Below are positions 60,301 through 60,870 of a stretch of DNA of 64,000 bases, one piece after another. Each line of letters starts with the position of its first letter. The first letter of the stretch is position 1. Source of the DNA: Escherichia coli (lineage in GTDB: Bacteria; Pseudomonadota; Gammaproteobacteria; Enterobacterales; Enterobacteriaceae); the NCBI RefSeq assembly GCF_013122565.1, contig NZ_CP053258.1, one strand, 5' to 3'. A program made the translations under genes and the position numbers. A model generated the notes under the pieces. That model was not told the DNA's origin, searched no databases, and saw only the letters and a program-made list of their open reading frames with translations.

Positions 60301-60441
60301 ATTCAGTTCTTTGAGGCTGTTTCGGGTATTCTGAATTGCGCCAGCCAGCTCTTTCGAACTGGCCTGTGCAGCACGGAATGGGCGGGTGAGTTTGTCAACC
60401 GCATTAAGAATGACCTGCAGGCGCAGGTTATTATCACTCAT
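57364..60441 (-). CDS. Tail tape-measure protein, P2 gpT-like (1025 aa)
   Basis: Long Ala/Leu-rich protein with coiled-coil N-terminus, located between E/E' and U. Confidence 0.88.
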   Translation of the reverse strand: MSDNNLRLQVILNAVDKLTRPFRAAQASSKELAGAIQNTRNSLKELNKQAGRIDEFRKTRSQLAITANNLNAAREEAAKLATQFAATNRPTAAQAKLFSQAKTRVQELQQTYNGLLGAVQRQRQALKESGIDTRQLSSAQRELKKNAEETRQALEGQQKALKRLGEQQARMNAAREQYSRRLEVRDRIAGAGATTTAAGLAMGAPVMAAVKSYTSMEDAMKGVAKQVNGLRDDNGNRTARFYEMQDAIKAASEQLPMENGAVDFAALVEGGARMNVANPDDSWEDQKRDLLAFASTAAKAATAFELPADELSESLGKIAQLYKIPTRNIEQLGDALNYLDDNAMSKGADIIDVMQRLGGVADRLDYRKAAALGSTFLTLGAAPEVAASAANAMVRELSIATMQSKSFFEGMNLLKLNPEVIEKQMTKDAMGTIQRVLEKVNALPQDKRLSAMTMLFGKEFGDDAAKLANNLPELQRQLKLTAGNDALGSMQKESDINKDSLSAQWLLVKTGAQNTFSSLGEMLRQPLMDILYTVKSITGALRRWVEANPELTGTLMKVAAVVAAVTVGLGTLAVALAAVLGPLAVIRLGFSVLGIKTLSSVTAAVTRTSSALSWLAGAPLALLRRGLASSGNAAGLLTAPLSSLRRTASLTGNVLKTVAGVPVALLRSGLSGLRAVAVMFMNPLAALRGGLAAAGSVLRVLASGPLAMLRVALYAISGLLGALLSPIGLVVTALAGVALVVWKYWQPITAFLAGVVEGFKAAAGPISAAFEPLKPVFQWIGDKVQALWGWFTDLLTPVKSTSAELQSAAAMGRRFGEALAEGLNMVMHPLDSLKSGVSWLLEKLGIVSKEAAKAKLPERVTRQQPATVNADGKVMMPSGGFPSWGYGFAGMYDSGGYIPRGQFGIVGENGPEIVNGPANVTSRRNTAALAAVVAGMMGVAAAPAELPPLHPLALPAKGGEAMVSRAATVPPVHRIEAPTQIIIQTQPGQSAQDIAREVARQLDERERRLKAKARSNYSDQGGYDA

Positions 60442-60567
60442 CGTTGGCCCCGCTTCTCTGAATCGCTTTATACCGCCATTCCAGCACTTCGGTCAGCGGC
60501 ATAACGTCAGTAACGGATGGCGGCCAATGAAAGATGGTGGCGATATCAGCCACCAGATCGTCAACCG

Positions 60568-60870
60568 TCAGGCTGTCGGTAAACCGGCAAGTACCGACTT
60601 CTTCAACAAAAAAGTGACAACCTCAACCGACATAGCGGTGAGATCTGCCGGGTCCATCTCTGCAATTTCCTGTGCAGTCAGTGCCGGGCTGGAGATGCGG
60701 GGGATCACGGTCATCATCGCGTTCACATCCATATCCATAATAGCCTGCAGGCGTGTACCGCGCAGTGCACCGGACTGCGGTTTACGCAGCACAATTTCGG
60801 TGATTTCCGTTTTACCGCGCTTGATAGGGGTATCCAGTTGAATAGTCTTTTCAGTCTGCTTATCGCTCAT
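60568..60870 (-). CDS. Tail assembly chaperone, P2 gpE-like (100 aa); the E+E' frameshift product would extend to 60434
   Basis: ORF track protein; slippery TTTTTTG at 60607-60613 (minus strand) within codons act-ttt-ttg. Confidence 0.85.
   Translation of the reverse strand: MSDKQTEKTIQLDTPIKRGKTEITEIVLRKPQSGALRGTRLQAIMDMDVNAMMTVIPRISSPALTAQEIAEMDPADLTAMSVEVVTFLLKKSVLAGLPTA

Follow-up and report, generated by a model that had tools for sequence, protein, structure and literature searches.

The window, by which we mean the whole 64,000-nucleotide stretch of Escherichia coli DNA analysed here, carries a phage tail operon with the gene order FI-FII-E/E'-T-U-D-ogr, which is also that of phage P2. 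The Pfam matches along the operon are Phage_sheath_1, Phage_tube, PhageMin_Tail, Phage_P2_GpU and Phage_GPD, followed by an ogr-like zinc-finger ORF; FI, FII, E, T, U and D as well as ogr are intact ORFs with full-length Pfam matches. Gene E has the tail tube gene FII (60925..61440) on one side and the tape measure gene T on the other, and the features around it are listed below.

60878..60881, minus strand: AGGA, 7 nt 5' of the ATG at 60870 and, judging from the sequence, the likely ribosome-binding site of E
60568..60870, minus strand: gene E, the 0-frame tail assembly chaperone, 100 aa (ORF and translation)
60607..60613, minus strand: slippery heptamer T TTT TTG, putative -1 shift site, in E codons 86-88
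60434..60607, minus strand: E' extension in the -1 frame from G60607, 57 codons, VEEVGTCRF...SGANDE (translation)
60434..60441, minus strand: overlap ATGAGTGA of the E' stop and the T start, the ATG (60441..60439) lying 5 nt upstream of the TGA (60436..60434)
57364..60441, minus strand: gene T, tail tape measure protein, 1025 aa (Pfam PhageMin_Tail, E=2e-18)

The E reading frame extends on the minus strand from the ATG at 60870 to a TGA at 60570..60568. Codon 86 starts at 60615, so that the 0 frame reads ACT TTT TTG (Thr-Phe-Leu) across the heptamer, which is the X XXY YYZ phase. The -1 frame opens at 60622, two codons before the heptamer, where a TGA immediately upstream closes the earlier stretch; it then remains open for 62 codons in total, 57 of them past the heptamer, as far as the TGA at 60436..60434. 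Reading the 0 frame through TTG and then reading G60607 again reconstructs a predicted E+E' fusion of 145 aa, composed of E codons 1-88 and the 57-codon extension. An earlier sequence-only reading had placed the end of gpE at 60568 and a heptamer at 60607-60613 within the codons act-ttt-ttg, and had proposed a -1 frame that runs to a TGA at 60434-60436 and overlaps the tape-measure ATG as ATGAGTGA. Re-reading of the ORF, computation of the phase and re-translation of the frame, which is indeed open, bear all of this out, and that observation is correct to the base in every coordinate.

The nearest true relatives of the region are Fels-2, RE-2010 and Cartapus (Peduoviridae: Felsduovirus, Elveevirus), a group that is 83-97% identical in DNA over 60300..61000 and 85-97% identical in protein, and that shares the heptamer, a 12-residue 0-frame tail behind it, the ATGAGTGA overlap and a downstream hairpin discussed below; the differences are point changes only, such as Thr94 here versus Ala in most relatives. 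At the DNA level Escherichia phage Cartapus is 97% identical, many Klebsiella prophage-derived phages 95-97%, and Fels-2, SEN8 and RE-2010 83-85%; P2 itself went undetected by blastn and was found by protein comparison only. The 6.8-kb tail module recurs at ~95-98% identity in about a quarter of complete E. coli genomes (1334 of 5426), and the window is colinear with E. coli FDAARGOS_497 (98.2%) from the sheath gene through ybjL and ybjM. Taken together, the relatives, the distribution and the colinearity show the region to belong to the right arm of a P2-family prophage that is very common, set in a chromosome of the E. coli type. Upstream of FI lie a DNA invertase and a tail-fibre fragment in inverted orientation, whereas FDAARGOS_497 has a plain fibre and assembly gene pair. 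The invertase gene is split by a frame change, and the window shows the right arm of the prophage only; the prophage may be partly decayed.

Protein families and the relationship to P2 and lambda

Both parts of the predicted fusion belong to recognised tail protein families. E matches Pfam Phage_TAC_7 (PF10109) with E=1e-18 (67.5 bits, where the cutoff is 25), and PHROG 103 'tail protein' with E=4e-44. The -1 extension, scanned alone, matches Pfam Phage_P2_GpE (PF06528; E=4e-19), a match that spans the last 37 residues only, and PHROG 1756 (E=2e-22), where the match begins at residue 3 of the extension; the PHROG families of both parts are classed as tail. NCBIfam has no model for E or for E', and neither Foldseek against the PDB nor phmmer against the PDB sequences matched a solved structure. 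A confident AlphaFold2 prediction from a 14-sequence alignment of reconstructed fusions (pLDDT 89, pTM 0.80) gives an N-terminal beta hairpin and several helices, among them a long helix (residues 74-92) that crosses the 88/89 junction and is followed by three helices formed by the E' part. The predicted model is coherent and would weakly favour a chaperone fold.

Aligned by BLASTP, the 145-aa fusion and P2 E+E' (142 aa) match without a gap, including the junction, at 48% identity (E=2e-50), and the extension alone is 54% identical to P2 E' over 57/57 aa with 0 gaps (E=3e-23); the alignment with E+E' and the similarity to E' on which the earlier proposal of a P2-like pair depended are thereby both established. 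In the P2 record (NC_001895.1) E+E' is a joined CDS with a 'site of -1 translational frameshift' at TTTTTTG, in the phase GGT TTT TTG, matching the phase found here. The two tail operons (FETUD in P2) have the identical heptamer in the same phase, offset by 3-4 codons in the alignment, as well as the same extension length of 57 aa, the same Pfam families and the same gene order, so that the P2 arrangement is reproduced. The E' stop overlaps the T start as ATGAGTAA in P2 and as ATGAGTGA here. E is 100 aa long here versus 91 aa in P2; the difference arises from the 0-frame tail beyond the slip, which has 12 residues versus 6 and is unrelated in sequence. A joined -1 product is likewise annotated in Yersinia phage L-413C and Erwinia phage EtG, and the Fels-2 record describes gpE+E' as formed through translational slippage. 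On this evidence the locus is very probably the E/E' frameshift pair of the tail operon of a P2-family (Fels-2-like) prophage.

The analogy with the G/GT pair of phage lambda also holds as regards arrangement, with overlapping ORFs, related by a -1 shift, that follow the tube gene and immediately precede the tape measure gene. In lambda the short form is made in excess, and the presumed roles are the same: the common domain engages the tape measure and the extension the tube protein (PMC5009743). The differences are that lambda is a siphovirus while the tail here is contractile, and that lambda uses a different heptamer at a lower frequency (30:1 ratio, PMC5009743). A Pfam scan of the products at E<=0.01 gave Phage_TAC_7 and Phage_P2_GpE only, with no match to the lambda gpG or gpT families, and the P2 and lambda proteins are reported to be without amino-acid similarity (PMC3931495). 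The lambda-type class is defined by its arrangement, and the missing family match therefore lowers the case for homology and not that for analogy.

Constraint on the site and other routes to E'

An open frame of ~60 codons is by itself unremarkable, and the frequency of TTTTTTG was rejected as stand-alone evidence: the window contains 13 copies where shuffled sequences give 20.3 +/- 4.4, so that the heptamer is under- rather than over-represented. Because such a heptamer is common by chance, the evidence for its use is positional and comparative. The six tail genes, ~2200 codons, hold only six in-phase X XXY YYZ heptamers, and the one in E is the sole one of the six near the 3' end of a gene with a -1 frame that encodes a conserved protein. 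Under the operon's own codon usage the probability of ACT-TTT-TTG, given the residues Thr-Phe-Leu, is ~0.011. A second heptamer in phase, G GGG GGA (57382..57376), is found six codons short of the end of T, and its -1 frame runs into U; a T-U fusion at this point was considered and ruled out, since the -1 frame stops after one codon in Fels-2 and RE-2010, and P2, EtG and ENT90 lack a heptamer there and have a ribosome-binding site of their own for U.

The comparative evidence comes from 98 loci, including 80 that are closely related and were taken from IMG/VR, a further five from annotated records, and twelve from distant phages of Erwinia, Burkholderia, Ralstonia, Shewanella, Vibrio, Mannheimia, Acidovorax, Zymomonas and Klebsiella. 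E' lies in the -1 frame relative to E in 97 of the 98 loci, and every one of the 39 distinct sequences with a T run, drawn from 15 lineages, has T6 in the phase NNT-TTT-TTN; the sequence-only reading had called the frameshift arrangement conserved, and these counts substantiate it. The codon that precedes the core of the run encodes Thr, Gly, Ser or Asn but without exception ends in T. T6 is kept in Burkholderia phage PL15 and Ralstonia phage RSY1 at a GC3 of 0.91-0.93, with T-ending codons at 5-8%. The retention of T while the residue varies, even at high GC3, points to selection on the nucleotides and not on the protein. Past the heptamer the 0-frame tail varies from 5 to 22 aa and is unrelated in sequence between lineages, whereas D105, A108, D109, F114, W116, E128, W132, A136 and R139 of the -1 frame are invariant or nearly so, which indicates that the coding constraint switches frame at the heptamer. 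The combination of these features is far beyond chance.

The same E+E' product could in principle be reached without ribosomal slippage, if RNA polymerase added one U on the T6 run and a fraction of the mRNAs then encoded E+E' in a single frame. The site is after all a homopolymer run, one extra base does bring E' into frame, and U7 and A7 runs can give slippage indels (PMC4066793). In L006, a locus of the comparison set, the run is T8 and E and E' are fused into a single reading frame, implying that the region tolerates a change of length; the exact L006 sequence, however, occurs in one contig only, which suggests a private mutation or a homopolymer sequencing error, and we rejected it as an alternative lineage making the short form by slippage. 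T6 is short for transcriptional slippage and falls below the long homopolymers of programmed sites of this kind; productive slippage by E. coli RNA polymerase is known from runs some 8-9 bases long or longer. The X XXY YYZ phase, constant in 39 distinct sequences, would not be needed for such a mechanism, and the seventh base of the heptamer is constrained, being mostly G. Two distant relatives moreover have non-homopolymer heptamers at the equivalent place, C CCT TTC in Klebsiella phage ST16-OXA48phi5.4 and G GGA AAG in Mannheimia phage 587AP1, neither of which can support transcriptional slippage and both of which argue for slippage by the ribosome. The P2 site, too, is described in the literature as a translational frameshift. 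Altogether we regard an origin by transcriptional slippage as very unlikely; it would predict the junction ...TFF-VEEV..., as opposed to ...TFL-VEEV... for a ribosomal shift.

Still less likely is that E' is translated alone, as a 39-aa 'GpE family phage tail protein' from an internal GTG at 60553, without any fusion to E. This is the form in which PGAP and several GenBank phage records give it: RefSeq has exactly such a 39-aa CDS in E. coli, and the records of RE-2010, Cartapus, SW9 and others have it likewise. The Phage_P2_GpE match covers just the last 37 residues, and P2 has an ATG in the column of the GTG. The GTG, which is the first start-type codon of the -1 ORF, lies 18 codons past the heptamer, and it is preceded by ...cctgacggttgacgatctgGTG, in which there is no SD-like sequence. 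Across the relatives the column reads Met, Val, Ala, Ile or Trp (RSY1 has Ala, as GCN, Vibrio phage MAR has Trp, and two others have Ile), and a start codon is therefore not conserved there. Upstream of the GTG, on the other hand, D105 and the -1 frame are conserved all the way back to the heptamer, with the frame opening two codons before it, and the PHROG 1756 match begins already at residue 3 of the extension. For P2, PMC3931495 describes E' as lacking a ribosome-binding site and as made as an extension of E. As far as can be read from the sequence, E' has no translation start of its own.

That the arrangement is a functionless relic, inherited from a P2-like ancestor by a now defective prophage in which the site goes unused, is extremely improbable, for although the neighbouring invertase is split and the right arm alone is visible in the window, the six tail genes and ogr are intact with full-length Pfam matches and the E/E' region is 97% identical to that of the isolated phage Cartapus, and such a claim would in any case concern activity in this strain and not the identity of the feature.

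Candidate stimulators of the shift

The preferred reading, a ribosomal -1 shift at U UUU UUG, raises the matter of efficiency. The heptamer U_UU.U_UU.G is missing from the list of -1 heptamers that shift most efficiently in reporter assays in E. coli (PMC4066793), so that efficient shifting here would depend on the surrounding sequence, and P2-type sites are reported without a downstream stimulatory structure (PMC3091744); for these two reasons a stimulating context was looked for. Two candidate elements lie near the heptamer.

60621..60624, minus strand: GAGG, candidate SD-like stimulator, separated from the heptamer by a gap of 8 nt; it fits, as a pattern, the definition in PMC4066793
60575..60598, minus strand: candidate hairpin GUCGGUA / UACCGAC, 7 bp with a 10-nt loop, starting 8 nt past the heptamer

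That definition places an SD-like element 6-17 nt 5' of the heptamer's second base (PMC4066793). Elements of this type are in range in 11 of the 15 lineages, compared with a background of 12% for the remaining in-phase positions in these genes. Once 80 more Burkholderia/Ralstonia-type loci are included, they accompany 43 of the 47 distinct TTTTTTG contexts (43 to 4), and 3 of the 11 contexts with TTTTTTT, TTTTTTC or CCCTTTC. These figures are to be read with the qualification that conserved Glu-Val, Lys-Val or Gly-Gly codons coincide with the element and that the lineages counted are not independent. Here the GAGG makes use of the minority Glu codon GAG, which accounts for 29% of the Glu codons in the operon. 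The form of the element differs between phages: GAGG stands 8 nt away here and AGGTG 6 nt away in P2, and Burkholderia and Ralstonia phages have GGAGG or GGNGG. We consider the SD-like element as a stimulator to be a lead and not a result.

The second candidate is the downstream hairpin. Folding of 60606..60520 (87 nt) gives z=-2.2, and the hairpin is present in the whole Fels-2-like clade, where its core of four pairs is invariant and the remainder exhibits one compensatory change, wobble changes and several breaks; the Thr94 change of the present sequence turns one pair from G-U to A-U. In P2 and the distant relatives nothing was found at a consistent position. The hairpin is a weak candidate stimulator at best. 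The sites of dnaX and of IS911/IS3 combine an X XXY YYZ heptamer with an upstream SD-like element and a downstream structure, and candidates of both kinds occur here, but the hairpin is much weaker than those of dnaX or the IS elements and is clade-specific.

One possible way to draw these observations together, which we advance tentatively and think somewhat unlikely to be right, is that the P2-type E/E' signal is a two-part compensating device in which the strength of the heptamer is traded against the SD-like element. Lineages with U UUU UUG would then almost always carry an SD-like element 6-14 nt upstream, and those with the stronger heptamers U UUU UUY and C CCU UUC would mostly be without one. 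If true, such a device would be at odds with the customary statement that stimulators are absent from P2-type sites, and it would account for the reported level of shifting on a mediocre heptamer.

Proposed mechanism and significance

The mechanism that we propose follows P2 for the shift itself and lambda for the roles of the products. Translation would start at the ATG at 60870, and the majority of ribosomes would terminate at the TGA at 60568 to give the 100-aa gpE. A minority would slip by -1 with UUU in the P site and UUG in the A site of U UUU UUG (60613..60607), the two tRNAs re-pairing to UUU UUU, and these ribosomes would read 57 further codons to yield the 145-aa E+E', which would have residues 1-88 in common with E. 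The GAGG upstream, and possibly the small hairpin downstream, may raise slippage on a heptamer that is not of top strength. In P2, as two publications summarise from Christie et al. 2002, E (91 aa) and E+E' (142 aa) arise through a -1 shift at TTTTTTG (PMC3091744, PMC3931495). By homology we infer the two products and their ratio in the present prophage. Christie and colleagues reportedly found in 2002 that both P2 products are essential and that the shift has a frequency of roughly 10%.

By analogy with lambda G/GT, many copies of the common E domain may coat the tape measure protein T, which is the presumed binding partner of the E domain on the model of lambda G/GT and H, while the E' domain of the rare fusion may recruit the tube protein FII and so start its polymerisation. 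The fixed frequency of the shift would set the ratio of E to E+E', and both proteins would be absent from the finished virion (PMC5009743).

The feature is already known and ordinary, and is present in thousands of sequenced genomes. Frameshifting in tail assembly chaperones is a textbook example of recoding; the general phenomenon is said to have been treated by Levin in 1993 and by Xu, Hendrix and Duda in 2004, 2013 and 2014, and the E/E' frameshift of P2 was reportedly described in 2002 by Christie et al. The present case adds little to the biology, as the Fels-2 record already notes slippage for the clade. Its practical value lies in annotation. In RefSeq E. coli genomes and many phage records the extension is called as a separate 39-aa 'GpE family' gene or is overlooked, and as a consequence the 145-aa product is absent from the protein databases. 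A module carried by about a quarter of complete E. coli genomes is in this way systematically misannotated, and the site offers a clean positive control for genome scans that seek recoding signals.

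Sequence elements around the slippery heptamer

Two elements flank the slippery TTTTTTG at which the frame of the tail assembly chaperone gene E would pass into that of its extension E':
60621..60624, minus strand: Shine-Dalgarno-like element, compared across the related E/E' loci L086-L178 in the interval 6-17 nt upstream of the heptamer
60535..60555, minus strand: 7-bp hairpin GGTGGC..GCCACC resembling a terminator, with a T-rich tract after it

The presence of the Shine-Dalgarno-like element correlates with the type of heptamer across the E/E' family, a correlation uncorrected for phylogeny and amino-acid constraint. 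It lies within 6-17 nt upstream in 43 of the 47 distinct TTTTTTG contexts and is in range in 3 of the 11 contexts with TTTTTTT, TTTTTTC or CCCTTTC, against a background of approximately 12%; these counts likewise ignore phylogeny and amino-acid constraint. The terminator-like hairpin lies within the E' coding region, 52 nt downstream of the heptamer, where it falls on conserved codons for V-A-D-I-A-T. P2 lacks the GGTGGC..GCCACC palindrome, and the hairpin is therefore probably incidental.

A second candidate slippery site occurs at the junction of the tape measure gene T and the following tail gene U:
57376..57382, minus strand: in-phase heptamer G GGG GGA, six codons upstream of the tape-measure stop

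From here the -1 frame reads IRR followed by the complete gpU, which would yield a potential T-U fusion. In Fels-2 and RE-2010 this frame closes immediately, and the heptamer is missing from the T/U junction of P2, EtG and ENT90; it is not conserved, and on this sequence comparison we therefore judge it a coincidence.

Representation of E' in sequence records

In RefSeq (PGAP), as in several phage records of GenBank, E' appears as a separate 39-aa 'GpE family phage tail protein' that starts at an internal GTG:
60553..60434 of the window: annotated 39-aa E', equivalent to 5070..5189 in the related locus L005, 1940..2059 in L001 and 1948..2067 in L004

The records of ST79, ENT90 and MAR leave E' unannotated and, among the records compared, a joined frameshifted CDS is annotated only in P2, L-413C and EtG. 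The Pfam PF06528 match is confined to the last 37 residues of E', consistent with a model built from truncated E' calls.

In the IMG/VR relative L006 (IMGVR_UViG_2734481921_000002, from 1443; 79% identity) a T8 run replaces ACT and the five following T residues, so that E and E' share one frame and are fused permanently. Exact matches to this sequence were confined to that one contig, and the T8 run probably reflects a private mutation or an error in sequencing the homopolymer. Another locus of note is that of Ralstonia phage RSY1 (NC_025115.1):
452..922 of the RSY1 locus (L090): ORF30, the sole CDS annotated as 'tail protein'

ORF30 is read in the E' frame from an ATG, immediately followed by an A9 run, and crosses the entire E region in that frame. 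The true E homology resides in the other frame, where the earliest start codon occurs only at 525. Either ORF30 is misannotated or the record contains a homopolymer error.

A split invertase and fibre fragment beside the tail operon

The sequence adjoining the tail operon includes:
62765..63336, minus strand: serine DNA invertase of the Hin/Gin/Pin type, in two ORFs
63358..63756, plus strand: tail-fibre C-terminal fragment (Pfam Gp53-like_C)

The first invertase ORF (63336..63103) matches Resolvase model positions 2-82, and the second (63094..62765) positions 90-144 plus HTH_7. That the two halves occupy different frames points to a one-base indel near 63100-63115, and the gene is therefore either a pseudogene or the product of a sequencing error. 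Synteny with E. coli FDAARGOS_497 breaks at 62623, exactly at the start of the sheath gene; in place of the invertase and fibre fragment, that genome carries a plain pair of fibre and assembly genes. The segment is seen incomplete because the window ends at 64000. The fibre fragment adjoins the invertase and lies antiparallel to the tail operon, which suggests an invertible host-range segment beside the tail operon.
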